Assembly (NCBI GenBank): GCA_041651415.1
Contig: JBAZJH010000004.1
Coordinates: forward strand, 1 to 62,266
Reading direction: 5' to 3'
Length of the DNA: 62,266 bases
Source: Minisyncoccota bacterium
GTDB lineage: Bacteria; Patescibacteriota; Minisyncoccia; UBA6257; XYB1-36-10
Shown: positions 2,633 through 44,840 of the stretch, piece by piece
Layout: every line of letters starts with the position of its first letter
Position numbering within the stretch: the first letter of the stretch is position 1
The notes under the pieces: model-generated
The model's input: the letters and a program-made list of their open reading frames with translations, nothing else
What the model was told of the DNA's origin: nothing
The model's database searches: none
Position numbers and translations under genes: made by a program

Positions 2633-2635
2633 AAA

Positions 2636-19214: not shown

Positions 19215-20318
19215 TTAATTAATAAGAGAAAAAGTGAGAGGATCTCCGCGGCTGATGTCACATTTTGCGGTTTTACCCAAAAGATCAAAAAAATAACGAG
19301 TGGCGAGTCCGGGAGCGTTTGCGGTACGGAGACCGCGAATATTACCTTGAGTTAGCAATTCTCCAGTTTTTATGTTTTTTATGGCAATAATGACGCGGCG
19401 GAAACCGGCAAATTGTTTTTCGGTATCGTTTTTAGGGCCATAAATGATTTGGCCGAAAAGCGGTCCGTTTTTGATTTTGGAGGCAAGGCGGGATCGATCG
19501 CTGGGGAGTAATTTTTCATCGGACCGGATATTATCCACCATTGATTTAAACTCCAACTCATCAAGAGAAAAAGCATCATCTAAGATGAAAGGGTTATGTT
19601 GTAAAACCAGATGTTTTTCAATGATGGAAGCTCCAAGTATGGCAGCAGCGCGGGCGATATCGGTTCCCCCGGCGTTTTCAGAGAGACCTATTTCAACATT
19701 GAAGCGTTCTTTCAGGTCTAGCATAGTGGCGAGATTGGCAGTAGCGGAAGGGGAAGCTGAATCGTAAGATGTGAGACAGAAAAGCAGAATGAGATCTTTT
19801 GCTCCAAAATTGCGGAGAGTTTGAATGGAATAAGTCACTTCTTCCAAAGAATCAAGACCAGTGGAAGCAATGATGGGTCGGCCGGTTTTTGCCACCTTTT
19901 CCAAAAAAGGAATGAAGTTGAATTCATAGGAGGCAATTTTGTAGCAGGGGGGATTAAATTCTTCCAAAAAATCAACAGCACTTTCGTCAAAAGGAGTGGA
20001 AAAAGTTTCCAATCCATATTCGGCCGCTAAAGCAGAAAGTTGCGGAAACCAATTCCATGGAGTAGAGGCTTCTTCATAAAGTTTATAGAGCGTTCTACCT
20101 TTCCAGTTCCCAGCAGCTTGAAACCAAGGTTGAGGAGAATCAAGTGTCATAGTGCTTGCGGTGTAAGTTTGAAGCTTTACAGCGTCAGCACCAGCACGAG
20201 CGGCAGCTTTTACTAACTCTTTGGCTTGATAAAAATCTCCTTGATGATTACAGGAAATTTCAGCGATGATAAAAACTGGATGTCCAATGCCGATTGAGTA
20301 ATTTCCGATTTTGGTCAT
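19215..20318 (-). CDS. pseI: Nonulosonate (pseudaminic acid-type) synthase, NeuB/PseI family with C-terminal SAF domain
   Basis: IIAEISCNHQG, GADAVKLQTY, STPFD, YKIASYE, IIEKHL motifs; pseB and pseC in the same locus. Confidence 0.8.
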   Translation of the reverse strand: MTKIGNYSIGIGHPVFIIAEISCNHQGDFYQAKELVKAAARAGADAVKLQTYTASTMTLDSPQPWFQAAGNWKGRTLYKLYEEASTPWNWFPQLSALAAEYGLETFSTPFDESAVDFLEEFNPPCYKIASYEFNFIPFLEKVAKTGRPIIASTGLDSLEEVTYSIQTLRNFGAKDLILLFCLTSYDSASPSATANLATMLDLKERFNVEIGLSENAGGTDIARAAAILGASIIEKHLVLQHNPFILDDAFSLDELEFKSMVDNIRSDEKLLPSDRSRLASKIKNGPLFGQIIYGPKNDTEKQFAGFRRVIIAIKNIKTGELLTQGNIRGLRTANAPGLATRYFFDLLGKTAKCDISRGDPLTFSLIN

Positions 20319-20348
20319 AAAATTCTCCTTACCAATATAGAGAATAAG

Positions 20349-21239
20349 TTATTCTTTGCGAGCGTAGATGGTTATCTCGCGGCCAATTCCAAGTTCAGCA
20401 AAGTTTCGAAAGAGTTTTCTCTTGAATGGATTGTCGTGTTTGGCGAGCGTTTGTTCAAAGAGGACTCTTTTTTTATGAATCATTTTTCCTATTTCAGGGC
20501 AACCGACGTATTGGTCGCCAAAAAGAATAAACATTTCTAACGGAAAAGTCGATTCTTTAAGGATTACTTTGAAGCCAACACTTTCAATTAGTTTTACCAA
20601 GGTGGAGACGGTAAAATAATTGATGTGCACAGGAGCGGTTACCCACCATTCATCAAGATGATATTCTTGATTAGCGATTGTCTGCAAAACATTAAACTCA
20701 TTCGGCACTCTAACAATTAAGAGGCCGTTATCCACTAAAATGTTATTAATGTTTTGCAAGATGACGTTTGGTTCAAGCAGATGTTCAAGAACACCCAAGA
20801 GAACGGCAGTGTGGAATTTTTCCTGAACGACAGAATTTAGTTCTTCGATGTGAGATCGAACGACATTCAGACCGGATTCTCTAGCGTTCTTAATTGCCTG
20901 AAACGAAGGATCTAAACCGAAAGCGTCATAACCTTTTTCTTGGCAATAATGCAAAAAACTGCCGAAGCCACAACCGATATCGATGATTCTATTGCCAGGC
21001 GCTTTAGAGTTGACAATTTCGATAATATCAGCGTATTGAATGCCTAAAAAATCTTTTTCCTCTTTCTGATTCTGAATTTCAGGAGCGGAATCTTGAATTT
21101 GTCCCTCTCGGTAGTTTCCGCCATAGAATTGTTCTTCGTAGTAGGCTTTGAGAGTTTCACAACTGGGCAGAGGAGAAAGGTGAAAATATCCTTTCTCTTT
21201 ATCGAAGATAACAGAAAACTTGCCGGCATTTTCTTTCAT
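20349..21239 (-). CDS. Class I SAM-dependent methyltransferase
   Basis: IIDIGCGFG, VLEHL, VRVPNE, HINYF motifs; AAGGAG SD before the ATG at 21239. Confidence 0.8.
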   Translation of the reverse strand: MKENAGKFSVIFDKEKGYFHLSPLPSCETLKAYYEEQFYGGNYREGQIQDSAPEIQNQKEEKDFLGIQYADIIEIVNSKAPGNRIIDIGCGFGSFLHYCQEKGYDAFGLDPSFQAIKNARESGLNVVRSHIEELNSVVQEKFHTAVLLGVLEHLLEPNVILQNINNILVDNGLLIVRVPNEFNVLQTIANQEYHLDEWWVTAPVHINYFTVSTLVKLIESVGFKVILKESTFPLEMFILFGDQYVGCPEIGKMIHKKRVLFEQTLAKHDNPFKRKLFRNFAELGIGREITIYARKE

Positions 21240-21347
21240 TTTTTTCTCCTTTTTCAATTATTATTCAGTTTTAGAATGCTGGAAGTAAAATAACTTTTTT
21301 TTGCAAAAAAGTCAATTTAAAGGGAGAAAAAATGTCAGAAAAGAAAA

Positions 21348-22637
21348 TTAGCGAATTTTAAAAATATCGGTAATAGGGTCTCCTTTAAGATTTTTTCTTA
21401 AGGTTTTTTTATCAAGAAACTCTTTTAGTTTTTTAAAAATACAGCCATAAGCATTAATAACCGTGTCTAGATCTTTTTTAGTATGGCTTAAATTGAGAAT
21501 GTGGTTGCCAATCCAAAGAATATTTTTTTCCAAAAGCTCCTGCTGGATATAGCTTTTAATTTCGATAGCGGCAAAGCCGTTAGAGCTTGAAACAAGAACT
21601 GATTGCCAGGGAACGATTCCGACAATTATGACAGTATCTCCCAGATTATTTTTTTTGATTAAACGGTCCAGATTTTTTTTGAGATAGAGAGCTTTTTGCT
21701 TAATGACGGACGGAAACTTTTCTTTTTCCATCACTTTTATAGTGGCAATGGCGGCAGCAAGAGACAGACATTCTCCGCCAGCGGTGAAAGAGAAAAAAAT
21801 GTCTTCCATTTTTTTCATATATTTAGCTTTGCCGACAACAGCAGAAATAGGCATGCCGTTAGACATAGCTTTGCCAAAGGTGGCGAGATCGGGCGTGACT
21901 TTATAAAGAGCTTGCGCTCCGCCGAGACTAGTTTTCCAACCGCTGGCGACTTCGTCAAAAATAAGAAGAGCGCCATATCTATGAGTAATTTTTTTAACAG
22001 CGGCAAGAAAACCAGGAGAAGGAGCTTCATAAGTAGCTGGCTCCAAAATAACGGCAGCTATTGATTTGGAATATTCCTTAAAGATTTTTTCAAGGGAAGA
22101 GATGTCGTTAAAGGTGAATTTATGAGACAGAGCGCGAGTGGCTTCAGGAATGCCAAGATTTCGAGTGGTGGTGCCAATAGACCAATCGTGCCAACCATGG
22201 TAGCCACCGACGGCAATATGATCTCGGCCGGTGACAGCGCGGACGAGACGAATGGCGGCAGTAGTGACATCGGAACCATTCTTGCCAAAACGAACCATTT
22301 CGGCGCAGGGAATATGTTTTTTTAGCAGAAGAGCCAGCTCGTATTCCAAGGAGGAAGCAAGAGAAAAGACGATTCCTTTCTTAAGCTGATTTTTAATAGC
22401 TTTATCGATAGCCGGATATTGATAACCGAGGCTGATGGCGGCTAATCCACTAACCAAATCAATATATTCATTTCCGTCGATATCCCAAAGGTGAGAACCG
22501 CGGCCGCGGACAGCAAAAAGAGGAGCTACTTCTTTAATGTATTGAAGATAGCTTTTTGAAAAGGTTTGTGAAGCGGTGGGAACAATGGAAACGACTTTTT
22601 TAAATAAAGAATTGCTTTTGTTAAATTTTGATTTCAT
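21348..22637 (-). CDS. Class III PLP aminotransferase (GSA-aminomutase-like), glycan-locus type
   Basis: GSHLWDIDGNEYID, FGKNGSD, YHGWHD, LLIFDEV, DLATFGKAMSNG motifs. Confidence 0.85.
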   Translation of the reverse strand: MKSKFNKSNSLFKKVVSIVPTASQTFSKSYLQYIKEVAPLFAVRGRGSHLWDIDGNEYIDLVSGLAAISLGYQYPAIDKAIKNQLKKGIVFSLASSLEYELALLLKKHIPCAEMVRFGKNGSDVTTAAIRLVRAVTGRDHIAVGGYHGWHDWSIGTTTRNLGIPEATRALSHKFTFNDISSLEKIFKEYSKSIAAVILEPATYEAPSPGFLAAVKKITHRYGALLIFDEVASGWKTSLGGAQALYKVTPDLATFGKAMSNGMPISAVVGKAKYMKKMEDIFFSFTAGGECLSLAAAIATIKVMEKEKFPSVIKQKALYLKKNLDRLIKKNNLGDTVIIVGIVPWQSVLVSSSNGFAAIEIKSYIQQELLEKNILWIGNHILNLSHTKKDLDTVINAYGCIFKKLKEFLDKKTLRKNLKGDPITDIFKIR

Positions 22638-23377
22638 CAATAATATTTTTTAAAGCCGCTATTGTCAGTGTAACGGCTGTTAAGATTGAAAATGTGGGGA
22701 TTTTTATCTAATAAATCCACATAATGAGAGAGTGGAGCGTCAATGGGACTATGAGCGATGAGAAATTTGATTACTTCGAAATCTTCCGGATAATCAAGCG
22801 TTAAACGATAGCGAGAAAGATTTTCCGGGTAGTTAAAAAAACTTTTTTTAATTTTTTTATTTTTACGCATAATAGGAGTGACATGCTCGCGCTCGGCGGG
22901 GAGACGAGCGGAGGAAGCGGCAAGAGCCAGAAGTTCTTTAGTAAAGACTTCGCCGCCAATACCATCAGGAAAAGTTTCATAATTTTCGGCAGAGGTGCTG
23001 GCAAAATCAACCGATTGACTGAAAAAAAGATCAATTAAATTATTGATGATGGCCGGGTCATTTAGTGGACAATCACTTGTGAGGCGAATAATGTGCTGAT
23101 AATTCGGATAAGCGAGAGAGCAGAGATGGTAGCGATTAAGAACATCATCTTCAGAACCGCGGAAGCAATCAATATTAAGGCGACGACATTCATCAATAAT
23201 GGCATCATTTTCCGGATTAGTTGAAGTAGCGACAATGATTTTATCTATTTTAGAACATAATTTATATCGTTTAATTTGATAACCGAGAATAGTATCTTCT
23301 TCATTAACTTTAAAAAGAACCTTGCCGGGCAGGCGGGTAGACTTTAGACGAGCTTGGATAATGGCGAGAGTAGACAT
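22637..23377 (-). CDS. spsF: SpsF-type acylneuraminate cytidylyltransferase
   Basis: IIQARLKSTRLPGKVL, FRGSEDDVLNRY, RLTSDCPL, REHVT, RLTLDYPED motifs. Confidence 0.8.
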   Translation of the reverse strand: MSTLAIIQARLKSTRLPGKVLFKVNEEDTILGYQIKRYKLCSKIDKIIVATSTNPENDAIIDECRRLNIDCFRGSEDDVLNRYHLCSLAYPNYQHIIRLTSDCPLNDPAIINNLIDLFFSQSVDFASTSAENYETFPDGIGGEVFTKELLALAASSARLPAEREHVTPIMRKNKKIKKSFFNYPENLSRYRLTLDYPEDFEVIKFLIAHSPIDAPLSHYVDLLDKNPHIFNLNSRYTDNSGFKKYY

Positions 23378-30283: not shown

Positions 30284-31432
30284 TTATTTACTGAAAAAAT
30301 TTTTTATGGAAGAAATTGTTTTTTTTATTTGTTTTGAGGTTAATCCAGGATAGAGAGGAATGGTAATGGCGGTTTTGGCATAGAGATCAGCGATGGGGAG
30401 ATTTATGTTTTTAAAACCGTTTTCTTGATAATAAGGATGGGAATAAACAGGCGGATAATGAAAATTGATGCCAATGCCGGATTGTTTTAAATATTCATAA
30501 AGAGGAAGACGATCCTCCGGATTTTTTGTTCTGATGACAAAGAGATGCCAACTGGAGCGAATACTTTGGTCTTTAGCAGGAAGGATTATTTCCGGAAAAT
30601 TCTCGAGTTCTTTAAAATAAAAATCAGCAAGTTCTTGGCGTTTTTTTATAAAATTTTCAAGTTTTTTGAGCTGGCTTAAGCCGAGAGCGGAATTAATATC
30701 TGACAAGCGATAATTAAAACCGAGATTAGTCATAACATTAAAACCTTGTTCATTTTTTCTAATACCATGGCTTCTTAAGAGTTTTAATTTTTCATAAAGT
30801 TCTTGATTATCGGTGGCAATAGCGCCGCCTTCGCCGGTAGTAATAGATTTTACCGGATGAAAACTAAAAATAGTCATAGAGCTTTTTCCGCTACCTATGG
30901 GCTGGTTTTTGTAAAAAGCGCCAAGAGCATGAGCGGCATCTTCAATAACAGCAAGGTTGTGGCGGGAAGCAATATCCCAAATTTTTTCCATAGCGCAGGG
31001 ATGGCCGGCAAAATGAACGGGAACAATAGCTTTAGTTTTTTCAGTAATGAGAGATTCTATTTTTGATTCATCGATATTTGAGGTGTCTTCTCTAATATCA
31101 CAAAAAACTGGTTTTGCGCTGAGAACAAGAAGCATATTAGCGGTAGCGGCAAAAGTGTTTGGAGTGGTGATAACTTCATCGCCTTCTTTTAGTCCGGAAG
31201 CAAGATAAGCCAAGTGAAGAGCAGCGGTACCGGAGGAAACAGCAACAGCATAACGAGAACCGACGATTTTTGCTAAAGCTTTTTCAAAGGCCGGACCGAT
31301 CGGGCCTTGAGTAAGCCAATCAGACCGAAGAGTTTTAATAACGGAAAAAATGTCTTTCCAACTCAGATATTGTCGGCCGTAAGGGATTATATTTTTTGGA
31401 TTATTTCCTGAAGTTTTTCGTTGGTTAGCCAT
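30284..31432 (-). CDS. pseC: UDP-4-amino-4,6-dideoxy-N-acetyl-beta-L-altrosamine transaminase
   Basis: IPYGRQ, SDWLTQGP, SSGTAALH, EDAAHALG, FSFHPVKSITTGEGG, GFNYRLSD motifs; adjacent to pseB. Confidence 0.88.
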   Translation of the reverse strand: MANQRKTSGNNPKNIIPYGRQYLSWKDIFSVIKTLRSDWLTQGPIGPAFEKALAKIVGSRYAVAVSSGTAALHLAYLASGLKEGDEVITTPNTFAATANMLLVLSAKPVFCDIREDTSNIDESKIESLITEKTKAIVPVHFAGHPCAMEKIWDIASRHNLAVIEDAAHALGAFYKNQPIGSGKSSMTIFSFHPVKSITTGEGGAIATDNQELYEKLKLLRSHGIRKNEQGFNVMTNLGFNYRLSDINSALGLSQLKKLENFIKKRQELADFYFKELENFPEIILPAKDQSIRSSWHLFVIRTKNPEDRLPLYEYLKQSGIGINFHYPPVYSHPYYQENGFKNINLPIADLYAKTAITIPLYPGLTSKQIKKTISSIKNFFSK

Positions 31433-32376
31433 TCTGTGTTGGTATTGCTCGCAAAACGAAAAGAAGGATTGAGTTTTGACCCGATGGTTTCATATTTGGA
31501 AAAGACAGGGCTTTGAGCAAGTCCTGATTCAGGAATGACAACATAATATTTTTCTGTTTCATAACCGTGCTTGGATTCTTCTTCAGTGAGAAGAGTTTCA
31601 TGCAGTTTCTCTCCTGGCCTAATGCCAGTCACTTCCTGTTTTGCTGCCGGGGCGATTATTTTAAAGAGATCAGAGATTTTCATGCTGGGAATTTTAGGGA
31701 CAAATATTTCTCCTCCTTCCATATTCTTCAGCGCAAAAAGAACCAAGTTAAAACTTTGCCTTAAAGTTATCCAAAATCTAGTCATGTCAGGATGAGTTAT
31801 CTCAACTTTATCAACTTTTTTGTTTAAAAATTTTTCAACAACGCTGCCGCGGCTGCCGATAACATTGCCATAACGGACGGCGCTGAATTTAGTTTTTTGA
31901 GAGGGAGAATAAGAATTGCTGTTTATAAAAAGTTTTTCAGCGCAAAGTTTGGTAGCGCCGTAAAGATTAACCGGCTGAGCAGCTTTATCAGTAGAGATGA
32001 GCAAAACTTTTTCTATATTTTGATTAAGAGCGGCTTCAACAATATTTTGAGAACCGATAACGTTAGTTTTAATGGCTTCTTGAGGATTGTATTCAATAGC
32101 AGGAACTTGTTTTAGAGCAGCGGCATGGACAACAATATCCACTTTTTGAAAAGCTCTTTCTAAGCGTCCCAAGTCTCGAACATCACCGATAAAAAAGCGA
32201 AGACGATCTTCAAATTGGCGCAGTTCTTGCGCCATATGAAATTGCTTATATTCGTCACGGCTAAAGATTATTATTTTTTGAGCAAGAGAATTTTCCAGGA
32301 GAAATCGAGTGAAGCTTTTGCCGAAAGATCCAGTGCCGCCGGTAATGAGGATGGTTTTGTCTTTTAAAAATTCCAT
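31387..32376 (-). CDS. pseB: UDP-N-acetylglucosamine 4,6-dehydratase (inverting)
   Basis: LITGGTGSFG, FSRDEYKQ, AALKQVPAIEYNP, STDKA, LYGATK, RYGNVIGSRGSV, MTRFWI, GIRPGEKLHE motifs. Confidence 0.92.
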   Translation of the reverse strand: MEFLKDKTILITGGTGSFGKSFTRFLLENSLAQKIIIFSRDEYKQFHMAQELRQFEDRLRFFIGDVRDLGRLERAFQKVDIVVHAAALKQVPAIEYNPQEAIKTNVIGSQNIVEAALNQNIEKVLLISTDKAAQPVNLYGATKLCAEKLFINSNSYSPSQKTKFSAVRYGNVIGSRGSVVEKFLNKKVDKVEITHPDMTRFWITLRQSFNLVLFALKNMEGGEIFVPKIPSMKISDLFKIIAPAAKQEVTGIRPGEKLHETLLTEEESKHGYETEKYYVVIPESGLAQSPVFSKYETIGSKLNPSFRFASNTNTEWLTNEKLQEIIQKI

Positions 32377-34286: not shown

Positions 34287-34895
34287 ATGAGCAGTTTATT
34301 TAAAGTAAATAAAAAAAAAGTTCTTTTTATCCATCTTCCCAGGACTGGCGGAACAAGCATGTGCAGAAGCTTAAAGCTACCTGTTTTAGGCCATCAACCT
34401 ATAACTAAATTTAAACCAAAACCTTTTCCTTTTTCTCTCTTTTGCAAAAAGCCTTTCTCTTTCGCTTTTGTAAGAAACCCATGGGATAGAGTAGTTTCAA
34501 TTTTTTTTCTTTTAAATGGAAAATGGACCAATAAAAAGAATGAGGCAGATCGAAAAACTTATGTAGAAAAATATAACGGGAATTTTGATAATTTTATTTT
34601 AGAATCTTTTAACGGCGACAAGCCTTTAATATTCAATCAGCAACATTTTAAACCGCAATATTTATATGTCTGTGATGAAAAAGGAGATATTGCCGTTGAT
34701 TTTATCGGCAAATATGAAAATATTCAGGAAGATTTTGATAAAATATGTTCTAAAATAGGGCTAGGCAAAATAGAACTTATCCGTGAAAATGTTAGCGTGC
34801 ACAAGAATTATCGAGAATACTATAATGAAAAAACAAAAGAAATTATCAGAAGAGCCTATCAAAAAGACATTGAATTATTCGGTTATGAATTTTAA
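34287..34895 (+). CDS. Sulfotransferase family 2 protein
   Basis: FIHLPRTGGTS (5'-phosphosulfate-binding loop) and FVRNPWDRVVS (3'-phosphate-binding), plus DFIGKYE and YQKDIELFGY. Confidence 0.88.
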   Translation: MSSLFKVNKKKVLFIHLPRTGGTSMCRSLKLPVLGHQPITKFKPKPFPFSLFCKKPFSFAFVRNPWDRVVSIFFLLNGKWTNKKNEADRKTYVEKYNGNFDNFILESFNGDKPLIFNQQHFKPQYLYVCDEKGDIAVDFIGKYENIQEDFDKICSKIGLGKIELIRENVSVHKNYREYYNEKTKEIIRRAYQKDIELFGYEF

Positions 34896-34930: not shown

Positions 34931-37714
34931 TTAAAGAAGTTTTTTGGATTTTAAAAAGACGATAATTTTTTCAAGACTTTCTTTTATATCCGAAGAATCT
35001 GTTTTTATTTCCAAATCCGGATTTTTAGGAGATTCATAGGGATTGGATTCGGCTAAACCGATAAAGTTGTCTATCTCTCCTTTTAGAGCTTTTTGATACA
35101 ATCCTTTAACATCTCTTTTAATACAAGTTTCAAGGGAACTGTTGACAAAAAATTCAATGAACTTATCACTGATGATATTTTTTATTTTCTCTCGGTCTTC
35201 TAAATAGGGGGCAATAACAGGGATTAAAACAAAATCATAAGTTTGCCTTTTTTCTTTAGCAAGCTTGGCTATCAGAAAATTATTTTTTCTGATATCTTCG
35301 CGAGAAAACCCCAAGTGTTTATTTTGCGTATTTCTGACAGAATCTCCATCTATAATAAAGACGGATTTATCTTGAGTTTCTAAAACTTCTTTTAGTTTTT
35401 CCGCCAAAGTGGTTTTCCCTGATCCAGAAAGCCCGGTGAACCAAATAACAGACCCTGTTTTATCCGATTTTTCTTCAATAAATACTTCCTCTTTATTTTT
35501 TATAGCGTCTGTAATTATTTGAGATATTTCCGGGCGCATAAACCAATTGGGAAGAGACTCTCCTTTTTTTAAAATTTTTCTGGCTTCTGTTCCACTGATA
35601 TGCAGTTTTTCTCCTTCAGTGTGGTTATAAATGTCTTCCGATTCGTGAATATACTGATTTAACTTTTTAGAATAAAATACTTGGTCGAAGAAAATCGGTT
35701 TTATACCAAGGTCTGGAAATTGGCTGAAAATTTCATGAGAGGCTTTGGAGTGATAAAAATTTCCAACACCGGTATGGTCCCGACCGACAATAAAATGGCT
35801 GCAGCCGAAATTTTTTCGGCAAAGAGCGGTAAAAATAGCTTCTCTCGGACCGGCATAACGAGAGAAAGTGGAAAAAGTAGAAAAAACAACTTTGTTTTTC
35901 GGGTAGAAAAGATTATTCATTATTTTATAGCCTTCAATAATAAATTTAGCGTGAAAGTCTCCTGGCTTTTTTTTACCGATAATCGGATGAATAAAAAGCC
36001 CGTGGCACCCTTCTTTTTCCAAAGCTTTAAGCTGAATAAATTCGTGACTTTTATGAATGACGTTTCTGGTGTGAAAACCGATAATTTTAGTCCAATCTTT
36101 TTCTTCAAATAGCCTTCTTGTTTGTCTTGGGGTGAGTTCATATTCTTTTGTTTCCGAATCTCTTGTTTTAATAAGATTTATTTTCCCGCCTATAATAATG
36201 GGTTTGATGTTTTTTGCCCATTTTACTCCCGGATGTTCTGGATTTTCTGTCCCATATAATTTTCTTATAAAATTTTCTTTGTCCAACCTGAATATATCTT
36301 TAACGTTCAAGAGAGCAACTATTTCTTGGTGCTTATTAGTAAGGGCGATTTCTTGGCCTAGAAAGATATTTTTGGATTGTTCTTCGGAGATATCTAAAAT
36401 AATAGGAATTGTCCAAATTAGGCCGTTTTTAAGGCGCATATTATCAAGAACACAATCTAAATCATCTTTTTTCATAAAACCTTCCAAAGGACTGAAAGCT
36501 CCTATAGCAATCTGTTCGACATCCATCTCTTGATTTTCATCTAATTCTATTTTAAAGAGAGAATTCAAATAGTTTTGACGCGGGGGATTTTCCATTATGC
36601 GATTAACCAGCTTTCCTCCATGAGGGGGAACAAGAGAAGAGTTGTTTTTAAAAAAATAATTTAAATTTTTTAAAAGAGAAGATAGTTCTTGATTGGCTTT
36701 TTCAAATAGATTTGAATTATTTACCAGTTCGGCTTCATTGATTAATTTATTCATTACGGTTAAACATTCTATGGGGTGTTTACCGATGGCCGTTTCAGCT
36801 GCCAAAATCAAACCTTCCGCTCCATCCAAAATGGTATTAATTACGTCGTTAGCCTCGGCTCTAGTCGGCTTTTTTTCTTTAATCATTGTTTCTAAGAGAT
36901 TAGTGGCGATAAAAACCCCTTTATTTTTTTCCTTAGCTTTGCTGATGATTATTTTTTGAGTAAGAGGAATTTTTTCTATGGAAATTTCTTTACTTAGATC
37001 TCCTCTGTCAATAAGCAGATAGTCTGATTTAGAGATTATTTCGTCCAGATTTTCCAAAGCTTCAAAGCATTCTATTTTGGAAATGATTCTCATTGAGTTT
37101 TTTGTGGCGCGCCTTACCTCATCTATGTCGGAACCTTTGCGGACAAAAGAAACGGCGATGTGCCCGATTTTTTCTTTCAGCCCCAATTCAATGGATTGAT
37201 AGTCTTTTTCCGATAAGGGGGGAAGAAAAAATTTTTTAGGGAAAACAGGGTCGATAATGACGGCTTTATTTTTTCCCAGAGAGCCGCTAGTAATAACTTT
37301 GGCGGTTATGAATCCTTCTTTCCTTGTTGAAACGTCGGAAATTTTTAGAATAAGAGTATTAAAATCTATGTAAACAAGATCTCCTTTTTCCAATTGATTG
37401 ATGATGTGACCAGGTTTCAAATTTATTTTTTCTTCATTGCCGAGAGTTTCTTCTTTGTAAATTTTTACGGTGTCGTTTTCATTTAAAATTACTGAATCTT
37501 TATAAAGATTGCCGGTTCTTACTTGCGATCCTTCAGTGTCAATGATAAAAGGAAGACCTACTTTTTTAGAGAGATCAATAAAATATTTCAAGTCATTCAA
37601 AGAAGAGTGAGACATATTGACTCTAATAAAACTAACTCCAGCCTCTTTAATCTTTATTAAATGAGATTCGGTGTTAGTTGCTGGTCCGACGGTGACGATT
37701 ATTTTTGTATTCAT
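34931..37714 (-). CDS. pyk-sat-cysC: Triple fusion: pyruvate kinase (A+B domains) - ATP sulfurylase - adenylylsulfate kinase
   Basis: PK: TKIIVTVGPA, RVNMSH, ISKIE, RGDL, ATNLLETM, PTRAE, ETAIGKHP. Sat: PHGGKL, FSPLEGFM, TRNVIHKSH, YAGPREA, HFIVGRDH. CysC: WFTGLSGSGKTT, DGD.VR, RDVKGLY, PYESP. One continuous frame. Confidence 0.92.
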   Translation of the reverse strand: MNTKIIVTVGPATNTESHLIKIKEAGVSFIRVNMSHSSLNDLKYFIDLSKKVGLPFIIDTEGSQVRTGNLYKDSVILNENDTVKIYKEETLGNEEKINLKPGHIINQLEKGDLVYIDFNTLILKISDVSTRKEGFITAKVITSGSLGKNKAVIIDPVFPKKFFLPPLSEKDYQSIELGLKEKIGHIAVSFVRKGSDIDEVRRATKNSMRIISKIECFEALENLDEIISKSDYLLIDRGDLSKEISIEKIPLTQKIIISKAKEKNKGVFIATNLLETMIKEKKPTRAEANDVINTILDGAEGLILAAETAIGKHPIECLTVMNKLINEAELVNNSNLFEKANQELSSLLKNLNYFFKNNSSLVPPHGGKLVNRIMENPPRQNYLNSLFKIELDENQEMDVEQIAIGAFSPLEGFMKKDDLDCVLDNMRLKNGLIWTIPIILDISEEQSKNIFLGQEIALTNKHQEIVALLNVKDIFRLDKENFIRKLYGTENPEHPGVKWAKNIKPIIIGGKINLIKTRDSETKEYELTPRQTRRLFEEKDWTKIIGFHTRNVIHKSHEFIQLKALEKEGCHGLFIHPIIGKKKPGDFHAKFIIEGYKIMNNLFYPKNKVVFSTFSTFSRYAGPREAIFTALCRKNFGCSHFIVGRDHTGVGNFYHSKASHEIFSQFPDLGIKPIFFDQVFYSKKLNQYIHESEDIYNHTEGEKLHISGTEARKILKKGESLPNWFMRPEISQIITDAIKNKEEVFIEEKSDKTGSVIWFTGLSGSGKTTLAEKLKEVLETQDKSVFIIDGDSVRNTQNKHLGFSREDIRKNNFLIAKLAKEKRQTYDFVLIPVIAPYLEDREKIKNIISDKFIEFFVNSSLETCIKRDVKGLYQKALKGEIDNFIGLAESNPYESPKNPDLEIKTDSSDIKESLEKIIVFLKSKKLL

Positions 37715-37756: not shown

Positions 37757-38821
37757 TTATAAATAGAATTTTTGGAAGCAACGATCAGCCATTATGCGCC
37801 AGGAATAATTTTTTACTTCAAGAAGGGCGTTTCTGACGATTTTTTCGGATAAAGATTTATCTTTTAATATTTTTTCGGCTTGAGCAGAGATTTCTTCAAT
37901 GTTCTCCGATTCAGCGATTAAAATGTTTTCATTTTCTTTTCCTAAGTCTTTTACCATACCGACAGATGTTGAGACAAGAGGCGTGCCAGTAGCCCAAGAT
38001 TCAAGAAGAGCCATGGGTCCGCCTTCAGTTCTTGAAGTGATGAGATAAAGGTCGAGAGCATGATAAAAATCGGCAATGTCGTTGTATTTTTTTGAAAATT
38101 TGTGGGTAAAAGGGATATTAGATTGAGAAAGGCGATTTTTGACGTAACCGCGGGAGGGTCCGGAGAGAAGAACGTGAAGAGGATATTTTTTGGAAAGAAG
38201 TTCAACGGTATCACAAAAAATATCCGGTCCTTTAACTAATTTTGGTTCCAGACCGTCTTCCCAACCGTTGCCGTCTTTTTGAAAGGAGCCGATGGTGATT
38301 TTATCAAGAGGCAAGCCAAGACGCTTTTTTATTTCTGTCTTTTCGGAAGGATTTTTAAGAGGTTTAAAAATTTTAAGGTCGATACCGAGAGGGACTACTT
38401 TAATTTGTTCTTCCTTGATTCCAAGTTTAACCAGCCCTTCTTTAGTGACAGAGCAAGAGGTGTGGACGGTGATGTTTTTTTCTTTTATTTCTTCGGCAAG
38501 TTCTTTTTCTATATCACGATTATTCAAATGATACCAAGAGACGATTATTTTATTGGAAAGATGAACTTTATTTTTATGCGAGGCAAAAACATGAACAGAA
38601 CCGAAATGAATTATTTTATTTTTAATAAAGAGAGGGGAAAGAGAAAGACGAACTTTGGCTAACTTTGCTTTATTCAAGTTCTCCGCTATTTCTTGAGTGA
38701 CAGTTTTAATAATCCAGCTATTTTCATCGGGAATCAAAAAAATTTCGCCGCGGCGGAATAAATTCAAAAAAGATTGAAAATAAAAACGCAATTTTCTTAA
38801 TATTTTTTTTAAAGTAAACAT
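37757..38821 (-). CDS. GT4 family glycosyltransferase
   Basis: GSFQKDG, KGPDIF, SRTEGGPMALLESWATG motifs. Confidence 0.85.
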   Translation of the reverse strand: MFTLKKILRKLRFYFQSFLNLFRRGEIFLIPDENSWIIKTVTQEIAENLNKAKLAKVRLSLSPLFIKNKIIHFGSVHVFASHKNKVHLSNKIIVSWYHLNNRDIEKELAEEIKEKNITVHTSCSVTKEGLVKLGIKEEQIKVVPLGIDLKIFKPLKNPSEKTEIKKRLGLPLDKITIGSFQKDGNGWEDGLEPKLVKGPDIFCDTVELLSKKYPLHVLLSGPSRGYVKNRLSQSNIPFTHKFSKKYNDIADFYHALDLYLITSRTEGGPMALLESWATGTPLVSTSVGMVKDLGKENENILIAESENIEEISAQAEKILKDKSLSEKIVRNALLEVKNYSWRIMADRCFQKFYL

Positions 38822-38822
38822 T

Positions 38823-39542
38823 TTATTTTTTAGACAAAACTCCCAGAAATTCTCCGAAATTAACGATAAAATTTTCTATTTTCCAACCGGACTCGTCTAA
38901 TTCCTTTTTCAGTCCTTCCAAAGTATATTCAATGCGGTGAGTGGGGTCGAGACGGTATTCAAAACCATTTTCTTTTTTATAAACGGCGAGCCAGTCGCGG
39001 GTTAAAAGAGGAACTCTTAAAATAATAGTATCGGAAAGCCGTCCCAATTTTTTTAGAAAATCGACTCGATTTTCTAAATGTTCTAATACATTGGAAAGAA
39101 CGATTTTATTAAACTGCCGATTAAATTCAAAGGAAACGGCGTCGCCAAAGACAAAAGAGAGATTAGGAAGATTGTTTTCTTTTTTGGCTATCGCCAAGCT
39201 TTTTTTGTTCAGATCGATGCCGACGACTTCTCTTGCGCGGGCGGCGATAATTTTAGAAAGATAACCTTCATGGCAGCCGACATCAAGAATGACATCGTTT
39301 TTTTCAACGCAGGAAAGAAAAAAAGAAAAATAATCAATGATTTTATGCTTGGGGTGGGAATTGTTATTCAAGCGGCGGGCGAGAGAGGTTATTTTGGAAT
39401 AGCTTTTATTATGAAGATAAATATAAAAGCGAAGCTTAAAGCGATTTAAAAAAGAATTATTTTTCCAAAGAGCGGAATAGACAGATTTAAAAGTCTGCCA
39501 TGGTCCGTAATGAAATAAAGAATAAAAAAGTTTTTTTATCAT
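38823..39542 (-). CDS. Class I SAM-dependent methyltransferase
   Basis: ILDVGCHEG, GIDLN, SNVLEHL motifs. Confidence 0.8.
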   Translation of the reverse strand: MIKKLFYSLFHYGPWQTFKSVYSALWKNNSFLNRFKLRFYIYLHNKSYSKITSLARRLNNNSHPKHKIIDYFSFFLSCVEKNDVILDVGCHEGYLSKIIAARAREVVGIDLNKKSLAIAKKENNLPNLSFVFGDAVSFEFNRQFNKIVLSNVLEHLENRVDFLKKLGRLSDTIILRVPLLTRDWLAVYKKENGFEYRLDPTHRIEYTLEGLKKELDESGWKIENFIVNFGEFLGVLSKK

Positions 39543-40465
39543 TAAAAGATTGATTTATTTTTAAAAGAATGGATGACAAGAGCATAAAAACCGGGAGAAG
39601 TTTTTTGGGAGGAATTCAGAAAACTGTTTTTAACAGCGGAAAGGAGCAGAGAGTTGTAGTTTTCAGTTTCAAGTTCGCGACGGTCTTTGGAACGGGCAAT
39701 ATATTTAGGTTTGGTAATAAAATCGAAATGGAGGCGATTGCAATTTTTGTCGCCGAGATTAAAGAGAAAACAATCGGAAAAATCCGAAAAGAGGCGGGAA
39801 ATTTTGGAAACGGTTTTGGGAGTGTATTCGCGAAAACCATGACCGCGATAAAGAGGAAGGCAGGCGGCGGAGGGGAAGAGATGAATTTGAAGAGTCGGTT
39901 TTTTTTCCGATAAAATGAATTTTTTGATTTGTTTAAAAAAATAAAGGTCTTTTTTAAAATGCTCGATAGCGGATTGGCTGATAAAGAGATTGGTTTTTTT
40001 AGGAATTGAAGGAAAAACATTTTGGCTGTTTCCTTCATGAAATTTAAAATCCGGGAATTCTTTTTCCAAGACCGGCCAATTTTTGTTGAAAACAGAATCT
40101 ATGCCGACATAAGAAGAAATTTCAGCGCCGGCTTTATTAGCAAAAAATTTTCCGTAATTGCCGGAGCCGCAACCAACGTCAAAAATATTAATGGCGTTAA
40201 GTTCTTCCTTGATTTTTGTCCAAGGGAGGGAAAGCCAGAAAAGGTCGGAAAGCTTTCTCGAGGGAGAACTTTTTATTTCGGTCAAAGGCCAAAATTTTTT
40301 CAGTTCTTGTTCGCTTAAAGAAAAATTTTTTATTTTCAGTTTTTTATCAAGAAACGAATAAGGAAGAGAGTTGTTCAGGCGATTGCCGGCCATAAAAAGA
40401 CGCATGCCCCATTTGGAAAGCCGGCGGTCAGCGTTGATGTTAAAAAAAGAAGTGGAGCCAAACAT
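39542..40465 (-). CDS. Class I SAM-dependent methyltransferase
   Basis: IFDVGCGSG, YVGID, SQSAIEHF motifs. Confidence 0.7.
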   Translation of the reverse strand: MFGSTSFFNINADRRLSKWGMRLFMAGNRLNNSLPYSFLDKKLKIKNFSLSEQELKKFWPLTEIKSSPSRKLSDLFWLSLPWTKIKEELNAINIFDVGCGSGNYGKFFANKAGAEISSYVGIDSVFNKNWPVLEKEFPDFKFHEGNSQNVFPSIPKKTNLFISQSAIEHFKKDLYFFKQIKKFILSEKKPTLQIHLFPSAACLPLYRGHGFREYTPKTVSKISRLFSDFSDCFLFNLGDKNCNRLHFDFITKPKYIARSKDRRELETENYNSLLLSAVKNSFLNSSQKTSPGFYALVIHSFKNKSIF

Positions 40466-40487: not shown

Positions 40488-42482
40488 CTAATTTCTAACT
40501 AATTTTTTATAAATACTAATTTCTTTATCTATTTGGGTGGAAAGGGAAAAATTTTCTAAAACAAAGCGGCGAGCATTTTTTCCTAATTTTTTTTGAAGTT
40601 CGGCGTTTACAGCGAGCTCTTTTATTTTTTCTCTTAAGCTTTCCGGAGAAATTTCAGAAAGAAGGCCGTTAAAATTATCGCTAATCACTTCGCGGCTGCC
40701 GGGAACGTCGGTGGCGACACAAGCAAGTCCGCAAGACATGGCTTCGAGAAGGGTTTTAGGCATACCTTCATAAAGAGAAGGGAGAATAAAAATTTCATAA
40801 CGATTAAGCGTTTCCGGCAGGGAATTGTTCGGGATGATGCCGAGAAAATTAACAGAAACATTTTTTTCTTCGGCAAAATTTTCCAGTTTATCTTTTAATT
40901 TGCCTGAACCGACTATATCTAAAGAAAGATTGGTTCCGGAAAGAGCTTCAATCAGAGAAAAAAGGTTTTTTTGCTCATTGAGACGGCCGACAAAAATAAG
41001 GCGGTCAGAATATTTGTTCAGATTTAGAGGTTTGAAAATGTCAGTATCGATATAGTTAGCAATAACGGAAATTTTATTTTCAGGGATTTTATATTCTTCT
41101 ATCAGATATTTTTTATCAGCGAGGGAAGTGACAAAAGCGTGATTAGAAAAACGATAGGCGGTTTTTTCCAAGCGTTTAATTTTAAAAATATTTTTATTTT
41201 CTTTAGTGTCGAAAAGCGACTGAGTATAGCCGGTGCGGATGATAAGTTTGGCGAAAGGATTGATAAACTTGGCAATGAGAGCGGTTTTGGCGCCGCGCAT
41301 TTGATTGGTTTTAAAAAAGTGAGAACGGAGAATTGTCGGAAGATGGAGAAAGGGGGCAAACCAATAATAAAGACGAATGGGCATCCGAACATTTTTGTAG
41401 ATTATTTTAATGTTCGGTTTTAAAAATTTTTGGTAAGCGAGTTCGCTCTTGTCGCCATAAGTGAAAATAAAAATATTTTTGAAGCGCAGAGCTAAGAGAT
41501 TATAAGAAGCGATTTCGCGGGAAAGCAGGCCGGATTTTTCCCAGTTTTTGAAATTCATGCCTGAGGTCATGAAAAGGACGAGATTTTTTTTCTTTAAATC
41601 GGCAATTTTCGGTTCGGCGTATTTTAATTTGTCTATAAAAAAATAAAATAATTTTTTTATCAGATTGTATGTTTTAGGAAAACGAGAGCGTAAATACGAG
41701 GAAAAAGGAACTTTAGCTCTTAAAGCGTAAATAGTTTTCGGGTCAATAATATTTCCTCCGTGCCTTTTCATAACTTCTTTTCTTTCATTATTGCAAAGAT
41801 TTTTTTTTGAAACTGTAACGGATTTTTCCCATTGGCGATAGGTAGCCAAAATTTTTTTTAAGTGAAGCGATTTTCCGTTTTTTAAGATTCTTAGCCACAA
41901 ATCATAATCGGGGGCGCATTTTAAGCCTTCATCGAGATAACCAATTTTATCAATTATTGCTTTAGTAAAAAAAGCGGCGGGTTGGCAGATACTGTGGTTA
42001 CGGCGTAAAAATTTTTCAAAATTTCCCGGCTCTGAAGAAAGAAGTTTTCTATGACCGGTTTCTTGATAAAGAGAATAGCAATCTCCGTAAATGAGGCTCA
42101 TTTCGGGGTGGTTATTAAATTCGTTTATTATGGATTTTATAGTGTTAGGTTCAAAATAATCATCCGAATTAAGCCAGCCGATTATTTCTCCGGACGATTC
42201 TTTTATGCCTTTATTGACAGCGCTAGCAAATCCTTTATTTTTTTGTTCGAACCATTTTAAATTTAAATGGTCGCAATTAATCGGAAGTTGTTTGTTTTTT
42301 AGAAGCAGTTCATATTTTTTTATTATTTCTATGCCGTTATCAGGAGAACCATCATTAATGATGATGTGTTCCAAATTAAAATCGCCTTCTTGAGAAAGAA
42401 CGCTTTTTATGGTTTGTTCCAGGGTCTCTTCTTGATTGTAGAAGGGGGTGATGATGGAAACGCTTTTGAACTTTTTCGGCAT
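40488..42482 (-). CDS. GT2 - GT4 glycosyltransferase fusion
   Basis: N-half: SIITPFYNQ, NDGSPD, WLNSDD, ICQPAAF, DYDLWLR. C-half: VGRLNEQKN, YEGMPKTLLEAMSCG. Confidence 0.85.
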   Translation of the reverse strand: MPKKFKSVSIITPFYNQEETLEQTIKSVLSQEGDFNLEHIIINDGSPDNGIEIIKKYELLLKNKQLPINCDHLNLKWFEQKNKGFASAVNKGIKESSGEIIGWLNSDDYFEPNTIKSIINEFNNHPEMSLIYGDCYSLYQETGHRKLLSSEPGNFEKFLRRNHSICQPAAFFTKAIIDKIGYLDEGLKCAPDYDLWLRILKNGKSLHLKKILATYRQWEKSVTVSKKNLCNNERKEVMKRHGGNIIDPKTIYALRAKVPFSSYLRSRFPKTYNLIKKLFYFFIDKLKYAEPKIADLKKKNLVLFMTSGMNFKNWEKSGLLSREIASYNLLALRFKNIFIFTYGDKSELAYQKFLKPNIKIIYKNVRMPIRLYYWFAPFLHLPTILRSHFFKTNQMRGAKTALIAKFINPFAKLIIRTGYTQSLFDTKENKNIFKIKRLEKTAYRFSNHAFVTSLADKKYLIEEYKIPENKISVIANYIDTDIFKPLNLNKYSDRLIFVGRLNEQKNLFSLIEALSGTNLSLDIVGSGKLKDKLENFAEEKNVSVNFLGIIPNNSLPETLNRYEIFILPSLYEGMPKTLLEAMSCGLACVATDVPGSREVISDNFNGLLSEISPESLREKIKELAVNAELQKKLGKNARRFVLENFSLSTQIDKEISIYKKLVRN

Positions 42483-42590: not shown

Positions 42591-44840
42591 ATGAATAAAA
42601 ATAACTTGGCGGTTTTTTATGAATGGGGGGCAAAAGCGATAATTTTTGCGGCGCCGCTACTTTTTCTTTTTATAGATAAGGCGTCTTTCTTTCCATATGT
42701 AGCTCCGAGAGCTTTTATCTTCAGATTTTTAATAGAGATAGCTTTTGCTTTTGTGGTCGGGGGCTGGCTTTTAAAAGGGAAGTTAAAGCCGAAAATTTCT
42801 TTAATCAGTGCGGCGGTTTTGATTTTTTTAGTCGTTATCGGAGTGGCCGATTATTTTGGCGCGAATCCTGACCGGAGTTTTTGGTCAAGATTTGAAAGAA
42901 TGGATGGATATTTGAATTTAATTCATCTGGTTTTGTTTTTCTTGGCAGCGCGTTTTGCTTTAAAGAAAAGAAGCGATTGGTTTTGGTTTTTTAATGCGAC
43001 TCTTTTTGTCTCGGCGGCGGAGTTTTTATACGCTTTATTGCAAAAATTGGGGAAAATAGAATCCATAATCGGAGGGTTCCGCGCGGAAGGAACTTTCGGA
43101 AATCCGACATATCTCGCGGCGTTTGCGCTTTTCGCTTTCGGGATAGCGCTCGCGCTTTTAACAGAAAGCAAGGAATTTTGGAAAAAAATAGTTTTTTCAG
43201 GAATAGCTTTAATCAACTTGATTACGATATATATGTCGGCAACAAGAGGAGTTTTTGTGGCTTTATTTGCTGGATTTATTATTTTTACGGGAATTATTCT
43301 TTTTATAAAAACAGAAGGAAGAGGAATAAAAATTTTAAAGAAAGCGAGTTTGTGGGGACTCGCGATACTTTTAGCGCTGTCCGCTTTGATTTGGTTTTTT
43401 AGAGATTCAAGTTTTATTTCAGGAAATGAAACTTTAAGGAGATTAACTTCCATTTCTTTTTCTGACCGAACGACTGTTGGAAGATTTTTAGTTTGGAAAA
43501 TGGCGTTAGAAGGAGCGATGGAACGGCCGATTTTGGGATGGGGACAGGAAAATTTTGTGGATGTTTTCAATAAGTATTATGACCCGGCGCTTTATAACCA
43601 AGAGATGTGGTTTGATAGAGCGCATAATGTGGTGATGGATTGGTTCGTAGCCGGAGGAGTTTTAGGACTTTTATCTTATCTTTTTATTTTTGGCGCGGCC
43701 GGTTTTGTTATTCTTCGAGTAATTAAAGGAGAGAGAGAAGAAGAGAAAAAGATTTCAGGAGCGATTATTCTAACTCTTTTTATTTCTTATTTTGTCCAAA
43801 ATATTTTTGTTTTTGACAATATGGCGACTTACGTGATGTTTTTTTCGCTTCTTGCTTACGCGGATTTTTTAAAAAAGGAAACGGGCGGGAGTCCGGAGGC
43901 GGGAAATTCAGAAGGAAAAGACAGGAAATATTTAAGCTTATCGGCGGCAGCTGTTTTAATCGTCATCTTTTCAGCGGTTTCCTGGTTTATAAATTTCAAA
44001 CCTTATCTGCAAGCAAGAGCGATGATAAAATCGGTAGAGATGATGTATGAAAAAAAGACGGTAGGCGGAGAAGTTTTGGAAAGTTTTAAAAATATTTTGA
44101 ATTACAACACTTTCGGAAATGAGGAAATGGCGGAGCAGATGGGAAAAATAATAAATGAGATTTTAATGACTTCCAAGGGAAATATAATTCCGGAAGCGGA
44201 GAAAAAAGTTTTTATGGAAGAAACCATGAAAGAGATGAAAAAAGAGATTGAAAGAGACCCGAATAATTTAAGAATGAGATTGTTTATGGGAACGATTTAT
44301 ACCAGATTTGCGGATTTGGATAAAAGCTATTGGGAATTGGGGAACAACGAATTAAGAGAAGCTTTGAAGATATCGCCGAATAAACAGCAGATTTATATAG
44401 CTTTAGTGGAAAGTTATTTAAAGAGCGGAGATTATGAAAAAGCTTACAATATTGCAGAAAAGGCTTATGAACTTGATAAAAATTACAAAGTGACAAGAGG
44501 AACTTTGGCTTATACCGCGCTTATTGCCGGAAAAAATGAAAAAGTGGAGGAATTAGCGAGGGAAGGTTTGAGCCATGAATATTTGGCAAAACTGGGCGAT
44601 ATTTATATCGTTCTTAAGGATTTCAAAAAGGCAATAGAAATGTTTGAGGGGGCAGTGAGGGAACATCCGGGATTGCCGGAATATCGGGCGAAGCTGGCCG
44701 GACTTTATCTAAACCAGGGAAAAATAAAAGAAGCGGTGGAGCAGGCGAGGATGGCGGAAAAACTTGACCCGGCAAATTATGCGGAGGGAGTGAGGGTGTT
44801 TTTGGAAAATGTAAAAAAGTTGGGATACGAAATAGATTAG
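42591..44840 (+). CDS. O-antigen ligase-like (Wzy_C) membrane protein with C-terminal TPR repeats; candidate O-oligosaccharyltransferase
   Basis: About 12 TM segments; SFWSRFERMDG, GTFGNP, SATRG, RPILGWGQE, DRAHN motifs; helical TPR-like tail. Confidence 0.8.
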   Translation: MNKNNLAVFYEWGAKAIIFAAPLLFLFIDKASFFPYVAPRAFIFRFLIEIAFAFVVGGWLLKGKLKPKISLISAAVLIFLVVIGVADYFGANPDRSFWSRFERMDGYLNLIHLVLFFLAARFALKKRSDWFWFFNATLFVSAAEFLYALLQKLGKIESIIGGFRAEGTFGNPTYLAAFALFAFGIALALLTESKEFWKKIVFSGIALINLITIYMSATRGVFVALFAGFIIFTGIILFIKTEGRGIKILKKASLWGLAILLALSALIWFFRDSSFISGNETLRRLTSISFSDRTTVGRFLVWKMALEGAMERPILGWGQENFVDVFNKYYDPALYNQEMWFDRAHNVVMDWFVAGGVLGLLSYLFIFGAAGFVILRVIKGEREEEKKISGAIILTLFISYFVQNIFVFDNMATYVMFFSLLAYADFLKKETGGSPEAGNSEGKDRKYLSLSAAAVLIVIFSAVSWFINFKPYLQARAMIKSVEMMYEKKTVGGEVLESFKNILNYNTFGNEEMAEQMGKIINEILMTSKGNIIPEAEKKVFMEETMKEMKKEIERDPNNLRMRLFMGTIYTRFADLDKSYWELGNNELREALKISPNKQQIYIALVESYLKSGDYEKAYNIAEKAYELDKNYKVTRGTLAYTALIAGKNEKVEELAREGLSHEYLAKLGDIYIVLKDFKKAIEMFEGAVREHPGLPEYRAKLAGLYLNQGKIKEAVEQARMAEKLDPANYAEGVRVFLENVKKLGYEID

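Follow-up and report, generated by a model that had tools for sequence, protein, structure and literature searches.

A pyruvate kinase–ATP sulfurylase–APS kinase fusion in a glycan gene cluster of a Minisyncoccota bacterium: a probable PAPS synthase with built-in ATP regeneration

The subject of this study is a single gene of a Minisyncoccota bacterium (Patescibacteriota) that joins pyruvate kinase (PK), ATP sulfurylase (Sat) and adenosine 5'-phosphosulfate (APS) kinase (CysC) in one polypeptide. It lies on contig JBAZJH010000004.1 of assembly GCA_041651415.1; this stretch of 62,266 nt, hereafter the window, corresponds to contig 4 in a genome of 741 kb that is 99% complete. The gene is a single open reading frame (ORF) of 927 aa with an ATG start (34931..37714, minus strand), for which Pfam, NCBIfam and an AlphaFold2 model give the order PK (A and B domains), linker, PUA_2, ATP sulfurylase and APS kinase. 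From the N-terminus, and all on the minus strand, these are a PK module made of the A barrel and B lid (aa 1-317, 36764..37714; PF00224), an inter-module linker delimited by the conservation profile and the model (aa 318-362, 36629..36763), the PUA-like N-terminal domain of ATP sulfurylase (aa 363-516, 36167..36628; PF14306, E 1e-47), the ATP sulfurylase catalytic domain (aa 524-735, 35510..36145; PF01747, E 7.5e-74) and APS kinase (aa 754-904, 35003..35455; PF01583, E 5e-45). A sequence-only reading of this DNA had described one 927-aa frame with PK, Sat and APS kinase; ORF and domain searches agree with it and add the PUA_2 domain.

The Pfam match of the PK module spans aa 2-317 and model positions 3-327 of 328 (E 6e-71). 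The NCBIfam pyruvate kinase model TIGR01064 gives 292.9 bits against a cut-off of 306.4 and is matched over positions 2-347 of 476 only, the score falling just short because the C-terminal PK domain is missing. Pfam found no PK_C match, that is, no C-terminal alpha/beta (allosteric) domain, anywhere in the fused protein, so that the earlier description of a PK without its allosteric domain is upheld. The sulfate-activating half passes the curated cut-offs of TIGR00339 (Sat; 362.7 bits against 322.95), NF003166 (Sat-type; 432.1 against 387) and TIGR00455 (APS kinase; 170 against 138.7), and does not reach that of NF004040, the bifunctional Sat/CysC equivalog (439.1 against 669). The motifs HTRNVIHKSH, RYAGPREA and GLSGSGKT are all present in the translation, as had been quoted. 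The AlphaFold2 model, built from 47 relatives, is confident throughout the chain (mean predicted local distance difference test, pLDDT, 90.4; predicted template-modelling score, pTM, 0.78) and predicts the linker as two helices (aa 314-329 and 334-350). The whole-chain pTM suggests a defined multi-domain assembly.

Relatives were collected by a search of 5.8 billion proteins from NCBI, JGI, ENA and Logan assemblies. The PK-Sat fusion architecture recurs in at least 120 protein clusters from independent assemblies, at 52–90% identity, and the fusion is found also in named metagenome-assembled genomes (MAGs) of many phyla. Because so many independent assemblies share it, the fusion is not an artefact, and the chimeric assembly or frameshift at the junctions that had been named as a possible undoing of the frame was rejected. 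The nearest relatives carry labels of Candidatus Pacebacteria, Parcubacteria and other Patescibacteria, and in the databases the fused proteins bear no other name than 'sulfate adenylyltransferase' or 'pyruvate kinase'. Eighty of the best 120 clusters carry the APS kinase, and the other 40 are PK-PUA-Sat proteins of about 750 aa that lack it; eight of nine genomes with the short form encode an APS kinase elsewhere. The conserved core is, on these counts, PK-Sat, to which APS kinase would have been added, and from which it would have been lost, repeatedly. Two variants have further parts: P0006 (1341 aa) reads Sat-CysC-PK-Sat, with two sulfurylase copies, and P0075 (1019 aa) reads NTP_transferase-PK-Sat. 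In a Dehalococcoidia MAG (L031 5977-7971, plus strand), PK is fused to a Sat-like domain with degenerate motifs (FDTYT for FHTRN, GNGHTH for GRDHTG), which may be an inactivated sulfurylase kept with an intact-looking PK, and in a Nitrospina MAG (L027 5977-10039, plus strand) the match to PK-Sat-CysC extends across three ORFs (192, 300 and 726 aa) in about 4 kb, which could be a disrupted copy or an insertion.

In the PK module, the catalytic residues R31, N33, S35, H36, D59, T60, R66, K150, K213, E215, D239, T271 and E307 are invariant or nearly so among the best 120 relatives. These residues we take to be the Arg, Asn and Ser of RxNxSH, the Asp-Thr of the cation loop, and Arg119, Lys206, Lys269, Glu271, Asp295, Thr327 and Glu363 in rabbit PK numbering. 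The A and B domains align with those of PDB 2e28 and 1pky-type PKs (E 2e-55), and the module superposes on PykF with a root-mean-square deviation (rmsd) of about 3.5 Å over 343 columns (Foldseek). In the Sat module, R550, N551, H554 and H557, the RYAGPREA motif, and G644, R645, D646 and H647 are kept, the listed residues being invariant, and Foldseek aligns it to 8a8d with a TM-score of 0.94 and an rmsd of 2.2 Å. The APS kinase motifs (P-loop GLSGSGKT, DGD, LGFSxxD..NN and KGLY) are conserved in about 80 of 80 full-length relatives. Sat and APS kinase look catalytic from their sequences. Per 20-residue block, the three modules are conserved to about 0.6–0.9, each much like the others, with relaxed conservation in the linker alone (aa 321-360); this indicates that all three are under purifying selection as enzymes.

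Three signatures set the fused PK clade apart from 24 housekeeping PKs: the cation loop (D[TS][EQA]G[SAP]Q[IV]R against D[LT]xGP[KRE]xR), the Mg2+/PEP (phosphoenolpyruvate) site ([IVL]DRGD[LM][SG][KR]E against [VI]ARGDL[GA]xE) and the Thr327 region (ATN against ATQ). In the window they read DTEGSQVR, IDRGDLSKE and ATNLLETM, the first departing from the canonical monovalent-cation loop (DTKGPEIR or DLQGPK[IV]R). The Sat module has changes of its own, H548-T-R-N for the canonical QxRN and GRDH-T648-G for GRDHAG. All PK-fused Sats with intact motifs read FH[TS]RN ... GRDHTG, the degenerate domain of the Dehalococcoidia MAG being the exception; among about 70 unfused Sats, FQTRN is universal and GRDHAG has a single exception (GRDRAG in L010). 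Two stand-alone Sats (L032 and L080), nested within the fused clade and with no PK in their loci, retain the H/T pair and represent secondary losses of PK. All of these PK and Sat changes fall on a single stem and so mark the clade, without amounting to co-evolution that is statistically independent; the idea that the H/T pocket had co-evolved independently with PK was downgraded, given a single origin in both trees and two PK-less descendants that keep H/T.

The tree of PK domains included 36 fused modules and 24 housekeeping PKs, among them the PK of the window's own genome. All 36 fused modules form one clade (support by the Shimodaira–Hasegawa-like approximate likelihood ratio test, SH-aLRT, 92) on a stem of 0.9 substitutions/site, within which phyla and domains of life are intermixed, as are long and short forms, and the Sat-domain tree gives a congruent clade (SH-aLRT 99). 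Because each tree yields one clade, a single fusion that spread horizontally is indicated, and the simplest history would be one PK-Sat fusion whose halves diverged together, followed by extensive horizontal transfer along with glycan clusters and by recurrent gains and losses of APS kinase. An origin of the fused module from the host's own PK was rejected, as the latter (L001) falls elsewhere in the PK tree. Among 401 species-level genomes of Patescibacteria, the PK-fused form occurs only in the window's genome and in one other (G098), about ten further genomes having an unfused Sat or Sat-CysC, and it was found in none of three genomes of the same order. Species-representative genomes with fused forms include Gammaproteobacteria, Acidobacteriota (5.8-Mb contig), Nisaea (4.6-Mb chromosome), Rhodospirillales, Nitrospina, Chloroflexota/Dehalococcoidia, Parcubacteria, Saccharibacteria, Staskawiczbacteria, Woesearchaeota and Pacearchaeota. 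The suggestion that the enzyme suits a fermentative, ATP-poor cell does not survive this spread, the family being present in large-genome Nisaea, Acidobacteriota and others and in only two of the 401 sampled Patescibacteria, and an adaptation to ATP-poor fermenters was accordingly rejected.

A check for a separate pyk gene, which had been called for, found one. It encodes a PK of 343 aa on contig 1 (about 66056-67012; L001 1429-2460, minus strand) that also lacks the C-terminal domain and has the cation loop DLQGPRIR, which is of the K+-independent type; loops of the DLQGPK[IV]R type belong to K+-independent PKs, and DTKGPEIR to K+-dependent ones. Many PK frames in the Patescibacteria survey are 337–384 aa long, not about 480, and PKs without the C-terminal domain seem to be recurrent in this group. 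The fused module is the sole PK-family match in six of 12 genomes that carry the fusion, which would fit a competent PK and also leaves room for a moonlighting role.

Next to the fused gene, in convergent orientation and 35 nt from its stop, is a Sulfotransfer_2-family sulfotransferase (34287..34895, plus strand; PF03567, E 2e-17), the likely consumer of 3'-phosphoadenosine 5'-phosphosulfate (PAPS). On the other side, 42 nt upstream and on the same strand, lies a GT1-family glycosyltransferase (37757..38821, minus), followed in the same-strand run by two methyltransferases (38823-40465, minus) and a GT2/GT1 gene (40488-42482, minus), and these probably form one operon with the fused gene. Glycan assembly genes continue with a Wzy_C/O-antigen-ligase-like protein with tetratricopeptide repeats (42591-44840, plus), a Wzx-type flippase (45352-46797, minus) and a Bac_transf priming transferase (46797-48158, minus). 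Nonulosonate genes include a NeuB/PseI-family synthase (19215-20318, minus), a methyltransferase and a class-III aminotransferase (within 19215..23377, minus) and the CMP-sugar synthetase CTP_transf_3 (22637-23377, minus), with PseC-like DegT (30284-31432) and PseB-like (31387-32376) genes nearer to the fused gene than the NeuB block. The presence of a PEP-using synthase of the NeuB/PseI family in the same locus, as noted in the sequence-only reading, is thereby confirmed.

Several other features of the window were recorded. Within the glycan/nonulosonate cluster, two ORFs of 338 aa (27558-28574, minus) and 409 aa (15902-17131, minus) have no Pfam match at E <= 1e-3 / 1e-5. An ORF of 327 aa (28578-29561, minus) matches DegT/DnrJ aminotransferases over only about 70 residues (aa 83-153), and adjoins a full-length DegT; it could be a gene remnant or else a paralogue that has diverged. 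Every 2-kb bin of the window shows a positive GC skew (0.02–0.44) regardless of gene orientation, with a minimum around the fused gene (34–38 kb), and the DNA there is AT-rich.

A genome-wide search of the host found no member of the PAPS_reduct family (CysH/CysD). With no PAPS/APS reductase in the genome, and sulfotransfer as the only visible use, PAPS would serve sulfation and not sulfate reduction, and an assimilatory role in this host was rejected. Further searches of the genome found neither a family I nor a family II (DHHA2) pyrophosphatase. An enolase and a membrane H+-pyrophosphatase are present, so that PEP can be made and pyrophosphate (PPi) removed; the notion that PK makes up for a lack of PPi removal was given up, since the H+-pyrophosphatase is there despite the absent soluble enzymes.

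The sulfation context recurs near fused genes in both bacteria and archaea. Among 99 neighbours at 13 named-genome loci, Sulfotransfer_1/3 domains are at the top, tied with methyltransferase domains, and are followed by radical-SAM enzymes and glycosyltransferases; a sulfotransferase directly flanks the fused gene in L020, L022 and L024, and weakly in L028, and CysQ does so in L020. On a 1-Mb contig of the candidate phyla radiation (CPR; L003), the order is sulfotransferase, APS kinase, PK-Sat-CysC and a CysQ-like phosphatase, beside NeuB and glycosyltransferases. The same cluster (1048-3897, plus) holds two PAPS_reduct-family genes and an EF-Tu-like GTPase (CysH/CysD/CysN-like) together with a stand-alone APS kinase, and two systems for activating sulfate seem to coexist in this organism. 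A locus of Woesearchaeota (L004/L005) is a glycan cluster, and on an STT3-bearing archaeal contig (L006) the genes run in the order sulfotransferase, PK-Sat and a CysC-CysQ fusion. The latter gene (APS_kinase plus Inositol_P; 10293-11669, plus) is directly downstream of PK-Sat, and the two fusion proteins cover the whole PAPS cycle.

One CPR genome, G250, has an unfused counterpart (L019 224-3559, plus), in which abutting or overlapping genes encode a sulfatase-like/APS-kinase protein, then Sat, then a PK of 325 aa that lacks the C-terminal domain. The Sat is of the canonical Q/A type. The PK has the DRGDLS signature of the fused clade and groups next to it in the PK tree, on a very long branch, and is an extra paralogue, the canonical PK of this genome being on another contig. 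This cassette speaks for a functional link, beyond the fusion itself, of a dedicated PK lineage to sulfate activation.

Taken together, it is probable, though by no means settled, that the fused protein is a PAPS synthase with built-in regeneration of ATP from PEP, supplying sulfate for a surface glycan. The Sat module would convert ATP and sulfate to APS and PPi, the APS kinase module would convert APS and ATP to PAPS and ADP, and the N-terminal, unregulated PK core beside them would convert ADP and PEP to ATP and pyruvate, so holding the local ATP/ADP ratio high and removing the ADP that inhibits APS kinase. The net reaction would be SO4 + ATP + PEP -> PAPS + PPi + pyruvate. The adjacent Sulfotransfer_2 enzyme would use the PAPS to sulfate a nonulosonate-containing surface glycan made by the surrounding cluster, the membrane H+-pyrophosphatase would remove the PPi, and enolase would supply the PEP. 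PK activity, its nucleotide acceptor and cation dependence, and kinetic coupling or channelling between the modules are what we infer here. A precedent for the benefit comes from human PAPSS1 in vitro, where without PK and PEP the ADP accumulates, APS kinase is held in a dead-end complex and the PAPS peak is 'practically missing' (PMC9885120).

Some observations weigh against this proposal. The conserved partner of PK is Sat, which releases no ADP, so simple ADP recycling leaves unexplained why PK is tied to Sat and not to CysC. As 40 of the best 120 relatives lack the APS kinase domain and both forms are intermixed in the tree, recycling of the ADP that it releases cannot be the sole reason for the fusion, the conserved unit being PK-Sat and not PK-CysC. 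Given that core, ATP supply to the sulfurylase, or the value of a host-independent, plug-and-play cassette, is at least as likely a driver as CysC ADP recycling, and the fusion may reflect only co-expression and not kinetic coupling. The fused PK clade, on its long stem, has fixed changes near the active site, K114E, P116S, E117Q, A292D, G297S, I298K and Q328N, positions that we take to follow rabbit PK numbering. Because of these deviations, its acceptor or cation dependence may differ from that of a normal PK. The sulfate pocket of Sat is likewise altered (Q to H, A to T). Both changes line that pocket, since in yeast ATP sulfurylase the sulfate of APS accepts a hydrogen bond from Gln195, and one of its oxygens is bound by the backbone NH of Ala293 (PMC6607087). 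The host genome has no Inositol_P-type CysQ, NrnA-type and other phosphatases of 3'-phosphoadenosine 5'-phosphate (PAP) not having been searched for, and no SulP transporter, other sulfate carriers likewise not having been searched for.

Such deviations could instead mean that the PK-like module and the H/T sulfurylase are a co-adapted pair with altered chemistry, such as another phosphoryl acceptor, a direct nucleotide hand-over in which PEP cleavage would force the unfavourable adenylylation, or a changed anion specificity of the sulfurylase. We consider this unlikely. It would fit the clade-exclusive, near-invariant substitutions in both active sites, the contacts of Gln195 and the Ala293 backbone with the sulfate of APS (PMC6607087), the long stem branch of the fused PKs (0.9), and Sat being always the fusion partner. 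The changes, however, all lie on one ancestral branch and so record a single event and not repeated co-evolution, and the descendants without PK (L032 and L080) still retain H/T. The known PEP, Mg2+ and ADP contacts in PK, and HxxH, RN and GRDH in Sat, are kept, and sulfotransferases, APS kinase and CysQ nearby are what ordinary PAPS synthesis would lead one to expect.

Rather unlikely too is an ordinary glycolytic PK that was fused by chance, for co-expression or moonlighting, with no specific coupling to sulfate activation. The six genomes in which the fused module is the only PK-family match, where it may be the PK of the cell, would suit this explanation, as would the stand-alone PKs of Patescibacteria that lack the C-terminal domain, including the host's 343-aa enzyme. 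Yet several of those six are incomplete MAGs or DPANN archaea, which may lack glycolysis, and a separate PK is present in the window's genome and in six of 12 others. Furthermore, the fused PKs form a clade of their own, which diverged in step with its Sat and was transferred horizontally together with glycan clusters, and G250 has a dedicated extra PK within its CysC-Sat-PK operon.

A non-catalytic PK module, acting as a structural, oligomerisation or PEP-sensing regulatory domain, is improbable. There is a precedent for a degenerate regulatory domain in the APS-kinase-like domain of fungal ATP sulfurylase (PMC2275785), and the cation-site signature is non-canonical, but the (near-)invariance of R31, R66, K150, K213, E215, D239, T271 and E307 in about 120 best relatives, at 40–60% identity, would be unexpected for a purely structural domain. 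Finally, assimilatory sulfate activation for cysteine, or an assembly artefact, is scarcely credible, for although Sat-CysC fusions are often assimilatory and the L003 locus has CysD/CysN-like and PAPS_reduct genes, the 99%-complete host genome has no PAPS_reduct-family gene, the fused gene sits in a glycan cluster next to a sulfotransferase, and at least 120 independent assemblies have the architecture in common.

No description of a PK-sulfurylase fusion was found in the full-text literature searched, whose coverage leaves out most subscription journals, and pyruvate kinase goes unmentioned in a systematic survey of fused metabolic genes. The PDB has no chain spanning the PK and Sat-CysC halves; aa 2-343 are matched by PykF or 2e28, and the top query-normalised TM-score is 0.41. 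The earlier statement that no characterised PK-Sat-CysC enzyme is known thus agrees with the literature and the PDB, and the possibility, raised with it, that the architecture is already common and characterised is right in its first half only, as it is common in metagenomes and no characterised member was found. The protein is apparently a widespread, uncharacterised variant of PAPS synthase, and lineages that are very far apart appear to have exchanged the sulfation cassette by horizontal transfer.

The ATP sulfurylase reaction is among the most unfavourable of central metabolism, and its known drivers are PPi hydrolysis, APS phosphorylation and, in CysDN, GTP hydrolysis. If the proposed PAPS synthase is confirmed, an on-board, PEP-driven ATP regenerator would be a new energetic solution for sulfate activation. 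The fused enzyme would also parallel the hand-built PK/PEP regeneration used in biotechnological PAPS production, and could in that case offer a ready-made, one-polypeptide catalyst for enzymatic sulfation. It would further imply that ultra-small CPR and DPANN cells make sulfated surface glycans, a trait for which no published description was found in these groups. A bolder and speculative version, to which we give only a small chance, is that PK-Sat is a hitherto unrecognised, PEP-driven sulfate-activating machine, in which a dedicated, co-evolved PK lineage and an H/T-pocket sulfurylase act together by direct ATP hand-over or by altered acceptor or anion handling. It would add a third energy coupling to those of CysDN and the pyrophosphatase-fused ATP sulfurylases, and horizontal transfer would have brought it to CPR bacteria, DPANN archaea and others as a plug-in supply of PAPS for sulfating surface glycans.

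Among known systems, canonical PKs (E. coli PykF, 1pky; G. stearothermophilus, 2e28) share the A and B domains with the fused module at about 34% identity, with the catalytic residues kept, and differ in having the C-terminal allosteric/tetramerisation domain and the DTKGPEIR or DLQGPK[IV]R, ARGDLGxE and ATQ signatures. The best PDB match of the fused protein is the Sat/APS kinase of Aquifex aeolicus (2gks; E 2e-101, aa 386-924, 33% identity), which likewise combines a PUA-like domain, ATP sulfurylase and a C-terminal catalytic APS kinase in one chain. Unlike the fused protein, 2gks and the bacterial Sat-CysC PAPS synthases have no PK module and have the canonical QxRN and GRDHAG pocket, and the Sat/APS kinase arrangement predicted by AlphaFold2 differs from that of 2gks (rmsd about 10.7 Å with both domains aligned). 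CysDN is a GTPase-coupled ATP sulfurylase, in which a second high-energy compound drives the uphill adenylylation of sulfate through conformational coupling; CysD belongs to the PAPS_reduct superfamily and CysN is an EF-Tu-like GTPase, a fold unrelated to Sat. A second high-energy compound enters in both CysDN and the proposed reading of PK-Sat; the conformational coupling is that of CysDN. Metazoan PAPSS1/2 resemble the fused protein in that one polypeptide makes PAPS for sulfotransferases, and their APS kinase step is sensitive to dead-end inhibition by ADP/APS, from which PK and PEP rescue PAPS formation in vitro (PMC9885120), but their order is APS kinase-ATP sulfurylase, they have no ATP-regenerating domain, and the PK in vitro is added separately. 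Parallels in principle are ATP sulfurylases that, like this one, are fused to an auxiliary enzyme, namely inorganic pyrophosphatase (stramenopiles, haptophytes) or APS reductase (Heterocapsa), an arrangement interpreted as shifting the very unfavourable equilibrium or channelling APS; the fusions described there have APS kinase, pyrophosphatase or APS reductase as partners, and PK is not among them (PMC2275785). In those enzymes the helper works on the product side of the reaction, by PPi hydrolysis or APS reduction, whereas the PK of the present fusion would, by supplying ATP and removing ADP, act on the side of substrate and energy charge.

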